Below are positions 3,001 through 37,224 of a stretch of 64,000 nt of DNA, one piece after another. A program made the translations under genes and the position numbers. The DNA comes from a virus (taxonomy: Duplodnaviria > Caudoviricetes), in the IMG/VR virus record IMGVR_UViG_2974549060_000001, positions 1-64,000 of that record; one strand, written 5' to 3'. The notes under the pieces are model-generated. The model did not search any database. It was not told the DNA's origin and saw nothing but the letters and a program-made list of their open reading frames with translations. Every line of letters begins with the position of its first letter. The stretch's first letter is position 1.

Positions 3001-6000
3001 CGTGCTGCACCTCGTAAAGACGATGCGCATAAACCACGTACTTTGAACCAGCAAGACCGTGTTGCTCCAGCAGAACAGCAGACTCAGCAAGAACAGGTAC
3101 AGGCTCAGGACTCTAATGAGAACGATCCTACTATTGCTGCTACCTCCGAAACTGATGCCAATGTGGTATCTGATCAGACTACTGCTACCAAAACTGACGA
3201 GAACACCAAAGCTGATGGTGCTACCCGTGTGCTGCGTCCAGAAGGACAATCACTCGAAGCAGCCCGTACCGCTGAACGTGCTAAACCATTTGACCAACAG
3301 AACCTTGTGCTCACTGGTTTCATCCAGCGTGTGCGTGAAGGTTTCGTCAACCCACTGGTAACTAACCCGGACTTTATGTCCTCGGTTATGCAGAAGGCTG
3401 ACTGGTCTGGTCGCTTCACTGAACTGAACCGTTACTTGGCTCAGCCGATGAATGCTGCCCAGAAAAATCTGATGGGTATGTTCGTCAATTTCCATAAAGC
3501 CGTTGAAGGGAATATCGATCCTTCCATTAAACAGAAGATCGGTAAAACTCGTGGTGGCCTGGATCGTTCTGCTTATAACTTCCAGGATTTTGTCCAGTTC
3601 CTTACTACTGATGGCAAATTAGATGAAAACACCAAAACCGCCCTGACTGCCTCCATGTTTACCTGGCTGGCAGAGAACGGTAACAAACTGATCGCTACTC
3701 GTGAAGATATCGCCGGTCTGTTCCACATGGACAAAGATGAAGTACCGACTGACGTAGTAAATCGGTTCTCTGAAATTGGTTCGTCCCAACGTGCTGTTAT
3801 CCAATCCCTTGGCCAGCGTGCTTACCAGATGTTGGGCTTCAAGGTACTGAAAGACGTTGACCCTAACCGTGCTGGCCGTATGCAGCAGGCACTGGGTATG
3901 TACGCAATGCACACGATGATGCAGCGTGGTTATCTGGAGCAAACCTCCATGACTGCTCGTGAGTACGCAGACGTTATCGCCTCTGGCTTAGATGTTGAAT
4001 CTGCCCAGGCCAAACGTGCGGAGTTCGCTCGCGAGTTCCTCGGTGGGGAAGATATCAATAAGTCCAAAGAAGTGTTTAACTTCGTCCGTGTACCGCGTCA
4101 GGAAGTAAATGGTCAACTGGTTCCGGCCAACAACATTGGTCGTATCGTGGAAGCGAATAAAGGCACTTCCGGGGTTATGTCTAAGCTGTTTAGCTTCGAC
4201 TCTTCCCAGACGTTCCCGCTTACCAAAAAGCCGGGTAAATTCATGCAGAATACTGTTGGTGATTTCGGCCAGCAGGTTCCGTCTGAACTGGTAGAACGCC
4301 TGACCAAAGCTCAGCAACAACCGTACCGGATTAATGAGTCCCTGGTTAACGCCATGAACACGATCCGCAATGTGGATGAAGCTGCACTTCTGCACATGAT
4401 GGGTGTCCGTACCGAAGCTGAAACTCCGTTCATGCACAACCGTGACCATATCGGCCAGCAGGCGAAGAACGATGATATCGTTCGTGCTCTGTCCAATGCT
4501 GATGAGGTTATCTCTGGTCTGGCTTCCATTGACCAGCAGATCTTCATGCCACTGTCTGTATGGAGCAATAACCGTGTAGGTGTAGCCTCCAACATGCTTA
4601 ACCCGCAGGGCAATAAAGTTCACCGTGCAATGGTAGGTATGGAAGCACACCGTACCTCTATCCCGGTAAACCAGACTGCAACTGACGGTAACGGTAACAT
4701 CACCGAATACGGCCAGTTCCTACTGACTGTAGCTCAGGGTATGGAAGAAGCACCGATCAAAAAACCAGGCACTACTGATAATATGCCTACGGTTGATAAA
4801 GTGACCGGTAAAACTTATCTCCAGGGTATGCAAGGCTATCTCGAAAGCGAACACGTTCAGGCTGGCGTCACCTCCATGATTAACGTCATTGAAGGTAAAT
4901 CCACCCCTCGTGATATTGCTACCGTGAAAGATCTGGTTGCCGAGTTCGGCATGGGGCCACACTCCTTCGAATCGCTGCACGCTCTGGCACTGGCTGAACA
5001 AGCTCGCCGTAACGGTAACGATACGGTAGAAGTGGCAATCGGTGGTGAATCGGATGGTGTCACCAACGGGCCAATCCTTACCAATGTGTTGTATGGAACG
5101 GCAGATACTGACCTTCTCTCTCGTGGTGGCCTTTACACTGCTGACGCTGGTGTTACCAACGTACCGCAGTACCGCGAACAAGGTGGACAGGATTACTACC
5201 AGCTCCTGGGGACAGCTCAGAAGAACGCATGGGATGCCATGTATCCTCCGACGACTGGCCGGGTAACGGATCAGAATCAGAAGTTCCGTCGTGCGATTGA
5301 TTACTTATCTCCTGGTTTCGGCTCTCGTTCGAAAGCCAAAGTACAGGCTACCCCATTCAACTATGGTTCCGGTATGGACTCGCTCAAGCGAGCAAGTGCC
5401 AGAGACACCATTGATAGCGTCTATGGTCATATCACTAATATTGCCGAAGCCTATAGCCGATCCAAAGTTGAGGGTGATTTCCAGCGTCATAAGCTGGAGA
5501 AGGCAATCGAGATCGTACTGGCCCAGGGCAAGACGCTAGGGATTAAAACTCCCGCATTTTCCGGCCTGGGTAAAACGGAATCACTGCTAACCACAGATCT
5601 GCCAAAACCTCTTACTGAGGCTCTGATGCAGATCGATATGGCTACCCGTGGTGAAGCATCACAAACTGCTATTGAGCAAGTTGCTGCCCACTACATTAAA
5701 ACCCGTGATACCAACACTGCTATTACCAACGCAGCGTTTGAGGTAGGGAAAGTTGTACGTGACCGTGCCGAAGCAATTGCTTTAAGCCAGGCAGTAGAAG
5801 ACGGGCAAGTAGGTTCCATTAATGGTGTAGCCGTAGAAGGCTTATCCACTGATGCAAAAGCTAACCTGTCTGCTCAACTGCGTGACTCAAGTGCTATCGT
5901 TCCGACCGCTACCGGTTCCCAGTCCAGCAATAAACTGGAGTCTGGTTACGTGGCAGCGAAGGTTAACTCTACCTTCAAATCCAATGATCCAATGACTGAG

Positions 6001-29384: not shown

Positions 29385-32096
29385 CTAAGCTCCTGTCCAC
29401 GTACCGTGGGCATCAACGTATTTAACCCAATCCTTCGGCTTCCACTTAGAAGTGTTCTCCGGTGGCGGTGGGCAGGTGTATTTACCTAACTCAGCCCATT
29501 CACAACGACGCCTGAAATACAACTCGTCGTGGATAGCTGACTTAATGCCTTCTTCGGACAGATTGTTGTCCAGCGTGATCGGTGTCGCCCAGTTTGGATA
29601 ATAGATATCCAGGTTGGCCGGTAACGGTACACGAGGGTCAGCAATTTCAGGTAACCCTTTCCAGGCCATCTCTTCAATGAGGTGGTCATTGGCAAATTTA
29701 ATTGCAGCAGGATTCCTGCGAATAAGCAGGTAAATGGCATCGTGAATCAACGCTACAGGCAGAATGTCGTTACGGAAGGGCGAAGCCCAGACCTTCTGCA
29801 TAAAAGCGTTTACAGCTCGGTTGGTGAGCAATCCGTATGACTGACCGCTCACTGCGTTGCCGAGGCTCCGGCCTTCGGCCTCTGCCTCGCGCATCGTGCG
29901 TGAGCTTTTCAGTACAGAACGGTGCAACAGTGGGGTACGGATACGGAGGCCAAAGGCTCCGGTGCCATAACCAACTTTGGTTGCATCTGCAATTTTACCC
30001 TGTACCCACTCGCCCGATACTTCGTAGAGCTTGTGGAAGTTTTCTTCGATCCGCTGAGCTTCTTCTTTAGAGAAGCCGCAGTTCTTGACCAGGGTAAGCC
30101 AGGTGCCCAGATATTGCAGGGCAAATGATACGGGTTTGGATTGACCACGTTCAGCTTTGAACTCTTCCTGGATTCGGTTAACCCCCTCAACGGTGTTCGG
30201 CAGGTGAGTAAACTTCTCCGGCCAGTATGCGTAGGTACGCATGGAGTGAGGATCATACCCGTCCGTAAAGACTTTAATCTTGTTCGGATCCTGGGTGAGT
30301 AGGGCATTGATACGGTCTTCCAGAGCATTGAAGTCAGCCCCGGCAAACAGCCAGCCATCAGGTGCGGAGAAGATGTACTTAATGAGCTTCCCGAATGTAG
30401 AACCGGATGGGAGGTTTTGCAGGTTGGGGTCTGAGGAACTCAGTCGCCCGGATAACGTACCGCCGAGGTTAAAGCTGCCATGCAGATACCAGCGACCATT
30501 ACCCTTATCGAAGCCAGCTTCGAATGCAGGTATGAACGAGCTGAGGATTTTGGACACTTTGTTGTAGTCGATTAACGCCCGCAACAGTGCTTTGGCCTCT
30601 TCCGTCTTGGCGTGGAACTCCAGCTTGTCGATGGTGTCCGATGCAGCAGACGGTTGCTTGGTCTTGGTACGCTCAATGACTGGCAACTGCATTACGTCGT
30701 AAAGCAGGATGCCGACTTGTGGGTTACTGCCTGGGTTAAAGTGCATGTCTTTGAAGTGTTCCAGCGGGTGCTGTTTCGTCTTCAATTTAGCATTGGCTGC
30801 CATCATTGCATTGGTCTGAATGATGCGTTCAGCCTCTTTAACGAAGCGTGTGCCACGCATCAACTGAATAGCGGCATTAAGCCCTTTCTCCAGTTTCTGT
30901 CTGGCTTCTGCAATCTTGACCGGTATCATCGGCATACCAGTCAATTCGATTTGCAGAATGGTTTTCAGTGATGGTAGGAATTGCTCTTTATAAATTTTGA
31001 GCTGCCCGTCACGCACCATGATCGGATAATATTTCTCCTTCACATACATGGTGGACATTGTGTCAATCACGTTGTACTGGAGTAGCTCCGGTAACGGGAT
31101 AGCCAGAATGTTTTTGATATCGTCCTTCGCCCAGTTCCCGGCAAATTCATGAGCCAGGGTTTTAAGACCCAGCTCATTTCCTGCCGTGGAGTTAGTCGCT
31201 AGATACGCAATGAGCTTGGTATCGTCGAGGTTCTTGGTGAGGACTTCAAGCCCTTCCAGCAAGCCAGCATTGTCCAGTGGATCGGTCATATACAGGTTGT
31301 AGATGAGGACTTTGATATCGTAGCCGCCGTGGTGGTAAGTGACCTTACCCTCATAGGCTTCGAAGAACTTTTTCAGCTTGTATCGGAAGTACGGATTGAA
31401 AATCCGGGTATTCTCCCCGTTCTGCTGGATCATGTCACAACGCATCCCGATGCCACCAGTGGTGTCCTTCGAGAACGCGATTGTACCGATACCTGCTTTG
31501 AACGGATGGAGGCTGAAAGTTTCGAGGTCAACTGCGACCTCCGGCCACTTCATGATTTCGGCAAATGCCTTATCAATCTCGTTGTCCGTTACAGGGTAGA
31601 ACGCCCACTTAAGGATATCTGCACCGAGTGCCTGATAGGAACCCTTAAGGCTACTCGCCAGAGTTTTGATGGACAGATCCAGCTTTTCAGACTGGGCAGG
31701 GTTGTACGTCAGTGCCTGGTAGTTAACACCCAGAGTGATCTGGATATCTTCATACCCCGGCCATGCACATGGCAGCATATAACCGAGCTGAGCTTCTGCC
31801 TTCGTATTCTTGGTCAAGACCTTGAAATAATTCGAATCGGCACAATATACATGCTTGGTTTGTAGCTTTTTAAGCGCAGGTAGGAGTTGTTCCAGGTACT
31901 TCTTAATATGCCCTACCGGAGCCTTATTATTCGGCTGGTAGTCCAGTGTGAACACCACCAGATTCTCTGACGCATAACCATCAGCTTCCAGTGGATCAAC
32001 ATAGAAACGTTTAATCTCCGAGGGCATTAATGCTGCCTCTTTGATAAGGATCGCCGTTTCATACGTCGGGCGAGTTGCATAGATTAAGTGTCGCAT
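29385..32096 (-). CDS. Family A DNA polymerase with 3'-5' exonuclease (N4 gp39-like)
   Basis: Exo motifs VDLET, HHGGYD, YNVID. Polymerase motifs GTLSGRLSSSDPNLQN, ADFNALEDR, RGQSKPVSFALQY, IHDA. Confidence 0.96.
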   Translation of the reverse strand: MRHLIYATRPTYETAILIKEAALMPSEIKRFYVDPLEADGYASENLVVFTLDYQPNNKAPVGHIKKYLEQLLPALKKLQTKHVYCADSNYFKVLTKNTKAEAQLGYMLPCAWPGYEDIQITLGVNYQALTYNPAQSEKLDLSIKTLASSLKGSYQALGADILKWAFYPVTDNEIDKAFAEIMKWPEVAVDLETFSLHPFKAGIGTIAFSKDTTGGIGMRCDMIQQNGENTRIFNPYFRYKLKKFFEAYEGKVTYHHGGYDIKVLIYNLYMTDPLDNAGLLEGLEVLTKNLDDTKLIAYLATNSTAGNELGLKTLAHEFAGNWAKDDIKNILAIPLPELLQYNVIDTMSTMYVKEKYYPIMVRDGQLKIYKEQFLPSLKTILQIELTGMPMIPVKIAEARQKLEKGLNAAIQLMRGTRFVKEAERIIQTNAMMAANAKLKTKQHPLEHFKDMHFNPGSNPQVGILLYDVMQLPVIERTKTKQPSAASDTIDKLEFHAKTEEAKALLRALIDYNKVSKILSSFIPAFEAGFDKGNGRWYLHGSFNLGGTLSGRLSSSDPNLQNLPSGSTFGKLIKYIFSAPDGWLFAGADFNALEDRINALLTQDPNKIKVFTDGYDPHSMRTYAYWPEKFTHLPNTVEGVNRIQEEFKAERGQSKPVSFALQYLGTWLTLVKNCGFSKEEAQRIEENFHKLYEVSGEWVQGKIADATKVGYGTGAFGLRIRTPLLHRSVLKSSRTMREAEAEGRSLGNAVSGQSYGLLTNRAVNAFMQKVWASPFRNDILPVALIHDAIYLLIRRNPAAIKFANDHLIEEMAWKGLPEIADPRVPLPANLDIYYPNWATPITLDNNLSEEGIKSAIHDELYFRRRCEWAELGKYTCPPPPENTSKWKPKDWVKYVDAHGTWTGA

Positions 32097-32611
32097 CAGA
32101 CCCCCTCCCCGTGGTTAGTAAATCCTCCATGAAGGCTCTCACGAATATTTTTTAATGCTTCATTCGCAGCGGCTGCTGTAGGGTGACCGTAGGTAGAGTG
32201 GCATACTCCATGTTTGCGTACTTGCCCATACCAGGATTTGGAAGGGGCATGAAAATAAACCCCTTTGAAGCCAGAGGTATTATTTCGACCCCTTCGGGTG
32301 TTACAGCGGTTTTCTGATACATCAGCCTCACGCAGATTGCACCAACGATTATCTGAACGAATATTGTTGATATGATCTGTTTCGTGTTTAGGCCATTTTC
32401 CTGTCATAAATAGGAAAGCTAACCTATGGCAAAGGTAGAGCTTTTTATCAATAACTAGTTCGACATACCCACTAACTGTATTGATATGTCCAGCCGTGTC
32501 CCCAGACTTAGCTCGCCAATTTCTGTCAAAATTCCAGGTAAAGTGACCGGTATCGGGGTTGTACGATACTAAATTTTTCAGTTCAGCTTGTGTTACAGAT
32601 GGTTGCCTCAT
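32096..32611 (-). CDS. Free-standing HNH-AP2 homing endonuclease
   Basis: YNPDTG..TDHINNIRSDNRWCNLRE..SGFKGVYF. Confidence 0.9.
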   Translation of the reverse strand: MRQPSVTQAELKNLVSYNPDTGHFTWNFDRNWRAKSGDTAGHINTVSGYVELVIDKKLYLCHRLAFLFMTGKWPKHETDHINNIRSDNRWCNLREADVSENRCNTRRGRNNTSGFKGVYFHAPSKSWYGQVRKHGVCHSTYGHPTAAAANEALKNIRESLHGGFTNHGEGV

Positions 32612-32692: not shown

Positions 32693-34801
32693 TTACTTCG
32701 TCAGGCTTTCAATCACCTCGACCACTTCATCACTGACGCCTAGAACGGCCCAGGATTTCTTCGCTGCTTTCTTGATTGCCAAAGCTTGCCCAGCAATTTG
32801 AGGGTTAATAATGCCCCCTTTCAGCACTTCGGCCAGTCGAGCTTTAGGGCTACCAGCCTTCGGTGCTTTTGCTTTCAGGTCGTCGAAACCAGATACGGTT
32901 TTAACGGCAACCTTTGGTGCTACCGACGTAGCCTTTTCAGTAACCAGCTCACCGATATCGTCAGACAGGCCCAGGGCAGTCCACGACTTCTTACTGGATT
33001 TCTTGAAGGCCAACAGTTCGGCAGCTTTAGTACCAGCAGTGGTGCTGGTTGCCGCGCCTTTGAACTCATCGTACAGACGCTGAGCTGTTTGGGCTTTCGT
33101 TTCTTTTTTCACGTTTTCAACCTTCGGTTCAACCGGTGTCAGATTTTCCACTTTATTAGCCGGAGCATCTTTCACTGGCTTGAGGTCAGCCGGGAGTACC
33201 GGTTTAGACGGTTCCGGTGGGATTGCACCTTCCGCATCAGGAATGTCCAGATTGGTGTTGCGGATATCTTCTGGTTGCAGGGGTGCAACGGTAGAATCCA
33301 CATCCTCCAGATCCGTAATGGTCAGCTTAGTGCCTTGAGCACCGCCGATTTGTACGGTCTGGTCAATCTTGATGTGCTTACCACGCAGAACAGCATTGAG
33401 CAGTTCAGCACCGCCTTTGACGTTCGACAGTTTACCGCCGTTGTTAACGGTGGCAGTCTGGCCTTTGTCCAGTACGGCCAGGATATCGTAACCAGCAACA
33501 CGCATTTTATTGTTGCTGTACTCCGGCACCGCGATAACGTCTTCCGGGGCAACCTTACCGATAATGGTAATTTCGCCATAGAAGCTACGCAGATAGCTGA
33601 GTGCTGCAACATGCAGTCCATTGGAGCAATCCTGACGGCGATCTGGGTCAACCAGACTTTCATCCATGAAGACGCGGGAGCCGACACGCTGGGTGACACA
33701 ACGGGAGTAAACGTCCACGTAAATGTCACGGCCCTGCTTGTCCTTACCGGATTTGGTCAGACGTTTGTAGATCACAATGGAGCCGTCATCAGCAATTGGT
33801 AGGTCGCCATGCTTCATGAACTTCATCAGATCTTCAACACTGAAACGACGCTTGTTGACGACAGTACCCAGACGTTCCAGGAATTTCTGGAAGCCGGTGA
33901 AGTCTTTAAGCGTGGTTGCAGCTTTGAGCTGATTGCCCAGATGCTGAGCTTCCGGGATGATGGTACGGCCACCGTTGGTAACGGCGACGACTGTTTCATC
34001 TTCCTTAAGTCCTTCTTTGAACTTCGGATCGCTCGGCTTGATGCCTTCGGCTTCGAGAATATCCAGACGAGCATTGGCCTCAGCCAACTTCTCTTCAATG
34101 GTTTTCTCTGCCGGGGCAACCGGAGCCAGTGGAGCAGCAGGTTCAATTACTGGCTTATCCCCAGTCGGGGTTTTCACCAGTTGTACCTGACCACCAGCCA
34201 GCAACACTTGCTCACGAATATCCTGAGCTTTAGCGGCTGTTACGCTGGTGGCGATCATCACGGGCTTAGACGCATTGACCAGATCAGCAGACTCTCTAAA
34301 GCCAGCACCGGTAGTTACACGGATAGCCTTAATAACAGCAACCTTATTCCCATCCAGGTAATCAGTCAGTAGTACATCGTAATTACCCGGTTCGAGGGTT
34401 ACCTCCTCCGCAGGCTCTACTTCACTGCCCGGCACCACGCCCAGAGTCTGGGGTGATACGTAGGCAGATGGTGCAGGATCAGCAACGGCAGGAGCCGGTT
34501 CAGGTTCGTCTTTAAACCAGTCGGCAATGCTTTTCTTCGCTACCTTGAAGAAACGTATTACACCACCACTGGCTTGCTCTGCTTCGCCAAATTCAGGGTT
34601 TTCCATGATAGGGCGAGGCATTTCCAGCGACACTTCTACCGGACGCGGAGGAACCTCGGAGAGAGGTTCTTTTACCGCAGCCATGATATTAGTGATGCGG
34701 GGGTCACCCTGTACCAGAGTGACACTGCTGCCATCCGGTGAGAACAGGATGACGTGGCGAGCGTCTACTGACACCGCCACAACCACTACAGATTTGTTCA
34801 T
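32693..34801 (-). CDS. rIIB: rIIB-like protein with an inserted ribosomal bL12 C-terminal domain
   Basis: Core FLERL..[42 protein letters not shown]; follows rIIA; bL12-like segment at about 34172-34389. Confidence 0.88.
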   Translation of the reverse strand: [702 protein letters not shown]

Positions 34802-37224
34802 TTTTTAGTTCCGTTTTTCATCGCGATTAAAACGAGGGATCGGAAAGCAGCTTTTCTTTCCGGGTTTGACGCAAGCAGGTCACGAAGTTCATCGATACCG
34901 ATGGTTTCAATAACGAAGTCATTCATGACTGACTTGAGTTGCTTAATCCAGGAGAACTCCTGGAGTTTATATTTGTTAACCGCCAGAGCCTGATCGTACT
35001 CGGCTTCGGTGATAACTTCGTCCTGCAACAAACGGTACAGGCTGTTATTGTCGATAACGTCCAGCACACGTTCCAGGTCGGCACGATAGGTCAGCTTCTT
35101 CAAGCCAGGTAGCTTGATACCCAGCGACTCAACCAGTCGGAGGACTGGAGATTTAATGTCGTGGATGTTGCTGAGGTCAGGGCTACGGTGACGAGTTAGA
35201 TATTCCTTCATCTCTTTGCTGAAATAGATCTCCAACATAGGTTTCAGGAAATACTGGTCGATGTGAACAGCACCGCGCTTAATAGCCATGTTGCGTTCTA
35301 CGCCGGTACGCACTACTACCGCGTTGTCCAGCATGTCGTCAGTCAACATAGCCGGTACGCAATAGCGCCCCAGTTTGGTGTATTTAACGGCAGCATAGTC
35401 AACGTAGAAGATTGGAGCATCCACCCAACCTTCCCACTCGGATTTATCTTTAATACTGGAACGGTCAAATACGAATCCGTTCTTAGTAGGCTCACAGATA
35501 TTCCGTAATGGAATAAGACCATTGGATACCTTCGACTTGACTGGTTTCTCTTTGGCGACACGAGCCTTACGGTTCTGTACGACCGGATCCCACTCATGGT
35601 TAAGTGTCAGATCAACGACCTCCCAGCCCGCAGCAGAAAAAGCTGCACGTTCTTTGATGCCATCGTTCTTCTTCTTACCGATGTGGTACACGTAATAGTT
35701 ACGGTTGTGGGCACGGTTTTCGAAGCCCGGCCAGTAGCTGCACGAGTACGTGATTTCCTTCAACCGGGTGGTTACGAATACCACCGGTTTCTGGAACATT
35801 GTAGCCATTGCACGAAGATTCATATTGTCGTTATAGACATGATGGTTACGGGTACGCAGGTTACGATACGGCGACCAGACCAGGGAGCGGAGGCTACCCA
35901 TACTCAGGTCAGGATGCTTCATCACTTTCAGCATTGGTTTAGCCACAAATTGCCAGAACAGCTTACGATAAGACAGCTCATTCTTTGACTCCTTCGCTGC
36001 ATACACCGCTTTCAGGATCTGCTTCTGGAACTTATGCCCTTTAAAGGCTTTCCGATACACTTCCATCTCTGCATTACGCATCATGGATTTGTAATGCTTA
36101 CGGAAGCACTCGCCCAAGCTGCTCAGGATGTAATGCTGAGACAGCGACGGCATAAAGCTAACCCAGTTAATCCACTTCGTCGTATGGAGCTGGTTGATAC
36201 TAAGGCTGGTGATGTATTGGGCTACACGTTTGGCATCTGCCGGGATGCTGGCACGAATGTCTTTCTCAACACGTTCGGTCAGCTTAAGGCAGAGGTCAAC
36301 CACACCGTTCTCTGTCATCTTCTGGCTTGATAAAGCTTCACGGCTTGGGGTCAATGCCAGAGTGTCAGGAGCAGCCTGAACCACAATACGATCCACGGCG
36401 ATGATTTGCATGAAACGCTTAATGGTATCCAGAGCCGGGCGGGTGGCCGGAGTATCCAGAGCCGGATACATCACACCACCATAACGGATGAAGATCTCAT
36501 GGTAACCCATGTAGTCCTGATACCAGGTGTTGCTACTGAACGAGTAGGAACCCGGTTCCGTAGACATACCCAGTTTAGGTAGTAACGGTTTGCTGGAGTT
36601 GGAGTAATACCCTTCAACTTTCAGCTCGATGTTCATCTCGCCGTGCATCGCGATATAACGAATATACGTCAGGAACTCGTACACATCGTTCTCTTCGATT
36701 GGGATACTGACCTCAAGGCCAGACTCCGTAGTCGGAGCTGACATGATTTCAGTGATCCCTGGCTTACCACCGGATTCGACTGAGGACTTGGTGATGTTGT
36801 ACACCGACATCGTACCATTATGGTAAGACGTGACACGGAAGCTGTCGGTATACGCGAACGGTGACTTACAGCCCAGGCCAAAGCCACCAGTGGATTTACT
36901 GTCGTTCTTTTTGGTAGACGCACCATAGGTGCCGTATACCGCACCCATACTTTCTGGGGCGATACCCTTACCGTAATCACGGAAGGTCAGAACAAAGTCT
37001 TCACTGATACGCACCAGACCGGGCACATTGGTTTTACCCGCGTCAATATGTGCATCCCAAAGGTTGCAGAGCACCTCACGGGCTACAGCTAACTTCTGGT
37101 TTGAATACAGGTTCGCAGACAGGATCTGGAAGAACGCCGGATCATCGGTGATACCGAAGTCGATAGTTTTACCACCACCCAGAGTAGCGGAAGTAGCCAA
37201 TTGAGTAGAGTCAGATACATTCAT
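34798..37224 (-). CDS. rIIA: rIIA-like protein (GHKL/HATPase N-terminus)
   Basis: LYSNQKLAVAREVLCNLWDAH, FRDYGKGI, GGFGLGCKSPFAYTD. Confidence 0.9.
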   Translation of the reverse strand: MNVSDSTQLATSATLGGGKTIDFGITDDPAFFQILSANLYSNQKLAVAREVLCNLWDAHIDAGKTNVPGLVRISEDFVLTFRDYGKGIAPESMGAVYGTYGASTKKNDSKSTGGFGLGCKSPFAYTDSFRVTSYHNGTMSVYNITKSSVESGGKPGITEIMSAPTTESGLEVSIPIEENDVYEFLTYIRYIAMHGEMNIELKVEGYYSNSSKPLLPKLGMSTEPGSYSFSSNTWYQDYMGYHEIFIRYGGVMYPALDTPATRPALDTIKRFMQIIAVDRIVVQAAPDTLALTPSREALSSQKMTENGVVDLCLKLTERVEKDIRASIPADAKRVAQYITSLSINQLHTTKWINWVSFMPSLSQHYILSSLGECFRKHYKSMMRNAEMEVYRKAFKGHKFQKQILKAVYAAKESKNELSYRKLFWQFVAKPMLKVMKHPDLSMGSLRSLVWSPYRNLRTRNHHVYNDNMNLRAMATMFQKPVVFVTTRLKEITYSCSYWPGFENRAHNRNYYVYHIGKKKNDGIKERAAFSAAGWEVVDLTLNHEWDPVVQNRKARVAKEKPVKSKVSNGLIPLRNICEPTKNGFVFDRSSIKDKSEWEGWVDAPIFYVDYAAVKYTKLGRYCVPAMLTDDMLDNAVVVRTGVERNMAIKRGAVHIDQYFLKPMLEIYFSKEMKEYLTRHRSPDLSNIHDIKSPVLRLVESLGIKLPGLKKLTYRADLERVLDVIDNNSLYRLLQDEVITEAEYDQALAVNKYKLQEFSWIKQLKSVMNDFVIETIGIDELRDLLASNPERKAAFRSLVLIAMKNGTKK

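Follow-up and report, generated by a model that had tools for sequence, protein, structure and literature searches.

Why should a phage protein that counters host defences carry a piece of the ribosome? The question is raised by a 64,000-nucleotide stretch of DNA (positions 1 to 64,000 of the IMG/VR record IMGVR_UViG_2974549060_000001; hereafter the window), which belongs to the complete 75.8-kb virus record of an N4-like Pectobacterium phage. Its rIIB gene (32693-34801, minus strand) encodes a protein of 702 amino acids (aa), P0001, and within that gene lies a segment (34172..34384, minus strand; residues 140-210) that corresponds to ribosomal protein bL12's C-terminal domain (CTD), the head of the ribosomal stalk. 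Few loci have been known to molecular biology for as long as rIIA and rIIB, and the conserved L12 head, grafted onto rIIB across an entire branch of N4-like phages, is a rare concrete hint at a cellular partner, which would be a translational GTPase or a protein that mimics one at the stalk. From the sequence evidence set out below, we put at about 50% the probability that the head is an off-ribosome mimic of the stalk head, binding ligands of the bL12 CTD and serving the anti-defence pair rIIA/rIIB as an accessory arm.

Residues 140-210 of rIIB are a bona fide bL12 CTD. They match the Pfam family Ribosomal_L12 (PF00542) with 41.5 bits (gathering cut-off 25.9; E 1.7e-10), the match covering residues 141-208 of P0001 and, of the 67 profile positions, 1-66. 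When the whole 75.8-kb genome was searched in six frames with PF00542, the rIIB module was the sole match (47.3 bits, E 1.9e-13, window positions 34178-34381) and no second L12 gene was found. Chance similarity can be rejected on the Pfam score and on this genome-wide match. A phmmer search against PDB sequences matched bL12 chains (E 8.5e-7 to 1e-5), and just two one-residue gaps interrupt the alignment. In an AlphaFold2 (AF2) model of full-length P0001, built from 44 homologues, the module has a predicted local distance difference test score (pLDDT) of about 90 and a beta-alpha-alpha-beta-alpha-beta topology. Foldseek places it on E. coli bL12 (1CTF) with a template modelling (TM) score of 0.88, a root-mean-square deviation of 1.5 A and 36% identity, and on 8yeq with a TM score of 0.89; bL12 chains in general give TM scores of 0.8-0.9 at 30-39% identity. 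ClpS, which has the same SCOP fold as the L12 CTD, was considered as an alternative identity and rejected, as it gives TM scores of 0.6-0.7, 16-18% identity and E values of at least 0.03, and no ClpS family of Pfam matches P0001.

The carrier of the head, by its own matches, is a genuine rIIB. P0001 matches PHROG 2886 over its full length (E 7.4e-189), carries Pfam PF26926 (Phage_T4_rIIB) in precomputed annotation and aligns by tblastn with the rIIB of T-even (T4-type) phages over residues 299-445, and its nearest atlas clusters are all PF26926. From its N-terminus the protein consists of an N-terminal domain (residues 1-97; 34511..34801; pLDDT 68-88, mixed beta/alpha), a disordered tether of ~40 aa (residues ~98-139; 34385..34510), the L12 head, a second flexible tether of ~20 aa (residues ~211-234; 34100..34171), the rIIB core or Phage_T4_rIIB domain (residues 235-520; 33242..34099) and C-terminal helices (32693..33241, including the stop codon), all on the minus strand. 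The core is covered by PF26926 and, over residues 298-450, by PHROGs 609, 11221 and 3803; modelled alone, it reaches a pLDDT of 83. Both tethers are rich in Pro, Ala and Glu and are predicted to be disordered (pLDDT <50 at 98-134 and 214-231), so that the head hangs between them much as it does in the native stalk. The layout copies the hinge-plus-head design of that stalk, minus its uL10-binding N-domain: Ribosomal_L12_N (PF16320), the dimerisation and uL10-binding family, has no match in P0001 at E up to 1, and the residues upstream of the module are the rIIB N-domain and the disordered linker. This N-domain, for which neither a Pfam match nor a Ribosomal_L12_N match was obtained, is kept in homologues both with and without L12. 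In the N4-like phages (Schitoviridae) of Enterobacterales, the L12 head is an ancient insertion, in frame, into the linker between rIIB domains.

These results bear out most of a preliminary description of the locus, made by reading the sequence without database searches, which had proposed a bL12 CTD embedded in rIIB, aligned almost without gaps and flanked by hinge-like Pro/Ala/Glu linkers. The domain is confirmed by the profile search proposed at the time and by the 1CTF superposition, its carrier by the PHROG assignment, and the 71-residue peptide that was quoted is found exactly as residues 140-210. As for the position then given (34172-34389), the start is correct, the end lies 5 nucleotides (nt) too far, beyond 34384, and the minus strand had gone unstated.

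Which surfaces of the head have been kept, and which lost? The helix-4/5 face of bL12 reportedly binds IF2, EF-Tu, EF-G and RF3, and K65, V66, I69, K70, R73, L80, E82 and K84 (E. coli numbering) are said to be the residues that do so. In P0001 all of these are retained except K84, which is Ala (A172), and L80, which is Phe. The first five of them correspond to K153, V154, I157, K158 and R161, and both their retention and the loss of K84 had been read correctly in the preliminary description. Conservation was then scored in 25 module representatives sharing <70% identity. R73 and P91 are present in every one and position 70 is always basic; V66 is found in 24, A83 in 23, G79 in 22 and E82 in 21, while position 69 holds Ile in 21 and Val in 3, position 80 holds Leu in 23 and Phe in 2, and position 85 holds Asp in 20 and Glu in 3. 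Position 65 is basic in 20 of the 25 and K84 is kept in 10. Helix 6 and the strands of the module are free to vary, whereas V66, I69, K70, R73, L80 and E82 are near-invariant, and conservation is therefore centred on the helix-4/5 face.

The opposite holds for the features that would hold the head to the ribosome. The native bL12 CTD touches the N-terminal domain (NTD) of uL11 through a K95 salt bridge, a cleft between helices 4 and 6 and the tip at G74 (PMC3505967). Both residues are replaced in the module, K95 by Ala (A184) and G74 by Val in P0001; among the 25 representatives position 95 is never conserved (Ala in 8, Leu in 6, Cys in 2) and position 74 is variable. The module keeps its ligand face and has lost its ribosome-anchoring features (the uL10-binding domain and K95). 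It is the absence of Ribosomal_L12_N, the loss of K95 and the variability of G74 that argue for use off the ribosome.

The source phage has as its nearest relatives the N4-like Pectobacterium phages of Cbunavirus, a genus of the family Schitoviridae. Along its whole length the window rIIB gene is 82% identical in nucleotides to those of CB4, CB3 and Nepra; in its 3' two-thirds, identity to Possum, Horatius and Arno152 is 91-92%. Between the window and CB4, the ratio of non-synonymous to synonymous substitution rates (dN/dS) is 0.146 in the module and 0.142 in the rIIB core, and between old L12 alleles it is 0.21-0.23. By this measure the module is under purifying selection as strong as that on the core, and is selectively maintained. 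Its distribution among rIIB genes, which the preliminary description had named as worth following, was surveyed in the best 120 of 1345 rIIB homologues. The module is present in 75 of these 120, always at residues ~120-225, and is retained in rIIBs down to 36% overall identity; several of the proteins that bear it are annotated 'ribosomal protein L7/L12' by JGI or nr. Homologues without it have just a 41-76-aa acidic/Pro linker at that site. On the rIIB core tree, presence and absence of the module change 13 times, and at least 8 of these changes are forced by well-supported branches. A decayed L12 copy is discernible by eye in one homologue (P0088), and the 681-aa rIIB of phage G7C (gp34) gives no L12 match, either with Pfam at E up to 1 or with a hidden Markov model (HMM) built from rIIB-embedded modules.

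Natural deletions of the module are found among these close relatives. The rIIB of CB1 (611 aa) is like that of CB4 (699 aa) in its N-domain and core, but lacks a block of 88 residues that is exactly the module and part of its linkers; in the DNA, ~30 nt stand in place of the equivalent of window positions 34104-34406. In Possum, Horatius and Arno152 the equivalent of 34104-37168 is gone, through a natural in-frame deletion of ~3.06 kb which fuses the first 18 rIIA codons to rIIB codon ~232 and takes out nearly the whole of rIIA together with the N-domain of rIIB and the L12 module. By analogy, this fusion can be regarded as a natural counterpart of T4 r1589. The paper on Possum does not mention the rIIA-rIIB deletion, and in the annotation the gene is plain rIIB. 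In CB1 as in Possum, the left edge of the deletion is at 34103/34104, in the downstream linker. Phages of both types form plaques; on laboratory hosts they can therefore do without the module and even without rIIA, and the module is hence a conditional accessory.

Where the module is present it can differ sharply between otherwise near-identical proteins. Three homologues (P0005, P0006 and P0007) match P0001 at 97-99% of positions in the N-domain, both linkers and the core and at 61-63% in the module, and in a fourth (P0013) module identity falls to 52%; the upstream linker is 98-100% identical in backbones bearing another L12 allele. When the P0001 gene is set against a P0006-type gene (L006), synonymous divergence (dS) rises from 0.09-0.2 in the flanks to 1.3, a saturated value, over codons 140-199, where dN/dS is 0.21. 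These two values led us to reject positive selection as the source of the divergent alleles, and the pattern is that of homologous replacement by an old allele through recombination. With an allele defined by <80% identity in residues 147-199, at least six L12 alleles occur among 21 backbones whose core is at least 85% identical to that of the window rIIB. The module is thus an optional, swappable cassette, repeatedly absent, occasionally decayed and exchanged between near-identical rIIB backbones. The natural variants (the CB1 module deletion, the Possum-type deletion and six or more alleles that can replace one another on near-identical backbones) are ready isogenic material.

The rIIB-L12 fusion is already known, from a 2019 paper and from Pfam-annotated databases, and P0001 itself is present in NCBI and UniRef; what is new here are the deletions, the old alleles, the conservation of the patch and the loss of the uL11 and uL10 contacts. 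The 2019 paper described bL12 domains in several N4-like phages, among them one in the 724-aa AHI60108 of Erwinia phage Ea9-2, noted that they lie inside larger polypeptides and that homologues without the domain exist, and found the residues that contact EF-G, EF-Tu and uL11 to be conserved in them (Mizuno et al., 2019, Nat Commun 10:752, PMC6375957). The preliminary description had stated that such domains are on record in N4-like phages, as indeed they are, but its implication that the fusion to rIIB was unreported does not stand, since the Ea9-2 protein in Table 1 of that paper is an rIIB orthologue. The word 'rIIB' has 0 occurrences in its main text and supplements. AHI60108 is annotated 'RIIB lysis inhibitor' and is a member of the 90% cluster of a homologue (P0080) that is 39% identical to P0001 over 100% of the latter (E 1.5e-119). 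Its L12 CTD lies at the same position as in P0001 (residues 146-210), but is far more diverged from bL12 (28 bits, against 41.5 bits in P0001).

The full-length architecture (PF26926 plus PF00542) is common to P0001, Ea9-2, Fifi067, Frozen, CB4 and Nepra. CB4, CB3, Nepra and Kosakonia phage Kc283 (78% nucleotide identity to the P0001 gene, whole gene) carry the same L12 allele family as P0001, with 77-78% aa identity over residues 128-214 by tblastn and 85-86% over the domain. They also have the same rIIA-rIIB-polA neighbourhood, to which the window adds an HNH gene between polA and rIIB, and their genes are annotated merely as rIIB-like proteins. Enterobacter phage vB_Ecl_SABI (L005) has an rIIB that its annotation misses, a 710-aa 'hypothetical protein' with a strong L12 domain (58.7 bits), encoded at 3500-5632 downstream of an 824-aa gene.

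Outside this group the likeness is looser. The bacterial bL12 CTD (PF00542; 1CTF) has the same patch (V66, I69, K70, R73, G79, L80, E82, D85) and a flexible hinge; unlike bL12, the module has no N-terminal dimerisation/uL10-binding domain and is internal to a 702-aa phage protein. The N4-like roseophages DFL12phi1, DSS3P2 and vB_DshP-R7L (gp15) are also Schitoviridae with a bL12 CTD homologue, but theirs is an unfused protein of ~105 aa encoded by a separate gene in the early region, and in R7L rIIB is a distinct gene (gp45, 477 aa) apart from gp15. Salmonella phage FSL SP-076 is, like the window phage, N4-like, and its 418-aa protein AGF88397 has an internal L12-like motif, which scores 23.2 bits against PF00542, below the cut-off. 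AGF88397 was rejected as an rIIB, as it is encoded beside a tRNA cluster and shares just the ~40-residue L12 motif with P0001; no rII genes were found in FSL SP-076 between the helicase gene and polA. It is the sole phage L12-domain protein with bench data: one peptide was detected in high-salt 70S fractions, and a pull-down of the tagged protein with ribosomes failed (PMC6375957). Among 1.8 billion representative proteins, the top matches of the module are non-ribosomal cellular proteins with 2-7 tandem L12-CTD repeats (P0122-P0270), in arrays of which some are fused to a Ser/Thr kinase, to LRV/HEAT repeats or to a uL10-like domain. These differ from the module in that they are not in rIIB and in that each repeat, at ~60-70 bits, is much nearer to canonical bL12. 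The L12 head is evidently a mobile module widely reused outside the ribosome.

What, then, might the head do in rIIB? The rIIAB pair counters RexAB in T4 and other T-even phages, and rIIB also triggers CARD-gasdermin defence; by analogy, the arms-race flavour of the cassette fits such a protein. In the reading that we favour, the L12 head would act off the ribosome as a tethered mimic of the stalk head, its helix-4/helix-5 patch (V66, I69, K70, R73, G79, L80, E82 and D85) transiently binding ligands of the bL12 CTD. EF-Tu, EF-G, IF2 and RF3, all translational GTPases, would be these ligands, perhaps joined by defence effectors that resemble factors, and binding would bring them to the rIIA/rIIB complex. 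The module would then serve an anti-defence system as an accessory arm, of use under certain conditions, and would not boost translation in general. Translational GTPases would be its default partners. The preliminary description had suggested that rIIB may tether or sequester these GTPases, or act as a decoy for abortive-infection systems that target translation, and its interpretation is partly supported by the present results.

Several points weigh against this reading. The isolated bL12 CTD binds factors weakly, and on the abundances and affinities of the factors concerned it is implausible that such a head, on a phage protein that is not abundant, could sequester very abundant factors in bulk; one head on a tether might have little effect without oligomerisation of rIIB. 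K84 and K65 are reportedly conserved in bL12 and implicated in factor binding, yet the former is not kept in this allele nor the latter in others. V66, I69 and L80, a part of the conserved patch, could be kept for the sake of folding. To our knowledge nothing links rII function to translation, and AGF88397, the one phage protein with an L12 domain that has been studied at the bench, is not rIIB. Finally, CB1 does without the module, and Possum, Horatius and Arno152 without module and rIIA, which makes it dispensable for plaques.

A rival reading, which we consider unlikely, is that the head is a decoy. It would mimic the host bL12 CTD and soak up low-abundance toxins of abortive-infection or CRISPR-ancillary systems, thereby widening the anti-defence range of rII; its targets would have to dock on the stalk head to reach the A site, as candidates such as Cami1-type CARF-RelE RNases and L12-dependent ribosome-inactivating enzymes would. 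The structure of cA4-bound Cami1 on the 70S ribosome, which includes a bL12 CTD chain (PDB 8phj), is among the structural matches of the module and gives this reading a tangible precedent, and Cami1 is cited as an L12-mediated interaction (PMC12179292). An L12-stalk-dependent ribosome-inactivating protein acts on E. coli ribosomes, according to a second report (PMC12737465). The carrier is itself an anti-defence protein, the presence/absence polymorphism, old alleles and cassette exchange fit a host-specific, conditional benefit, and a decoy would not need the uL10 and uL11 contacts, which matches their loss. However, no such effector is known in Pectobacterium hosts (none was sought here), and a host bL12 that is nearly invariant offers no obvious reason for a mimic to come in alleles just 45-60% identical; moreover, one head per rIIB would compete with the four on every ribosome. 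Quite improbable, in our view, is docking on the ribosome itself, by which the head would enter the GTPase-associated centre and either put rIIB/rIIA on ribosomes or block the access of factors. The uL11 contact of native bL12 described above and the single AGF88397 peptide in 70S fractions speak for it, but the loss of K95 and of G74, the latter at the tip of helix 4, argues against it; helix 6, which lines the uL11 cleft, is likewise variable, and P0001 has no uL10-binding N-domain. The failure of tagged AGF88397 to co-purify with ribosomes points the same way, though that protein is not rIIB.

That the head has no ligand of its own, and is a captured host-like domain tolerated in the linker as a functionless passenger or inert spacer, seems to us improbable to the same degree. 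Its dispensability in CB1 and Possum-type phages, the decayed copy in P0088 and the want of a detectable L12 domain in G7C rIIB are what such a passenger would leave; against this stand purifying selection equal to that on the core, retention of the module across rIIBs down to 36% overall identity, and conservation that sits on the exposed basic-hydrophobic patch of helices 4 and 5 and is not spread evenly over the fold. The head could also be a substrate-recruiting arm that hands translational GTPases to a cryptic enzymatic rIIB core, possibly resembling an ADP-ribosyltransferase (ART), and this we hold to be very improbable. The core does contain a set of invariant polar residues (R347, D385, R388, R389, D391, C392, S393, H397, Y403, E420, D421, K432, R434 and Y438), and ARTs of phage and Rhs origin that modify EF-Tu exist, namely T4 ModB and TreTu. 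Yet a Foldseek search with the core gave no significant match (best E 0.47), P0001 matches no Pfam ART family, and most rIIBs, that of T4 included, do without an L12 head. An unlikely but wider proposal joins parts of these: the head would be a swappable bait or recruitment cassette, its alleles and nulls kept because each engages different stalk-head ligands, either defence effectors that are intercepted or GTPases handed to a cryptic, possibly ART-like core. If true, it would be the first mechanistic link of the 70-year-old rII locus to the translation apparatus.

Around the head the locus is that of an rII pair, with the rIIA homologue directly upstream of rIIB. It lies at 34798-37224 on the minus strand, encodes 808 aa with a GHKL ATPase N-terminus (PHROG 2979, E 3.8e-238; Pfam HATPase_c_3), and overlaps the start of rIIB by 4 nt (ATGA), the two genes being translationally coupled. 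At its other end rIIB closes with two copies of a helix-turn motif, KKSxKKSW..LG(L/V)SD, at residues ~595-620 and ~672-697 (window 32711-33019). Both are helices in the AF2 model; across the family K600 and W607 do not vary, and K677, K681 and K682 hardly do. The last 130 residues of the protein are mosaic, with 67-99% identity among backbones otherwise 96-99% identical. The HNH gene of the window is a 171-aa HNH_3 endonuclease open reading frame (E 1e-11) at 32096-32611, minus strand, between the DNA polymerase gene (polA) and rIIB; it is absent from that place in CB1, CB4 and Possum, where an HNH gene lies upstream of rIIA instead. The mosaicism of rIIB might be furthered by homing endonucleases on the flanks of the rII locus.

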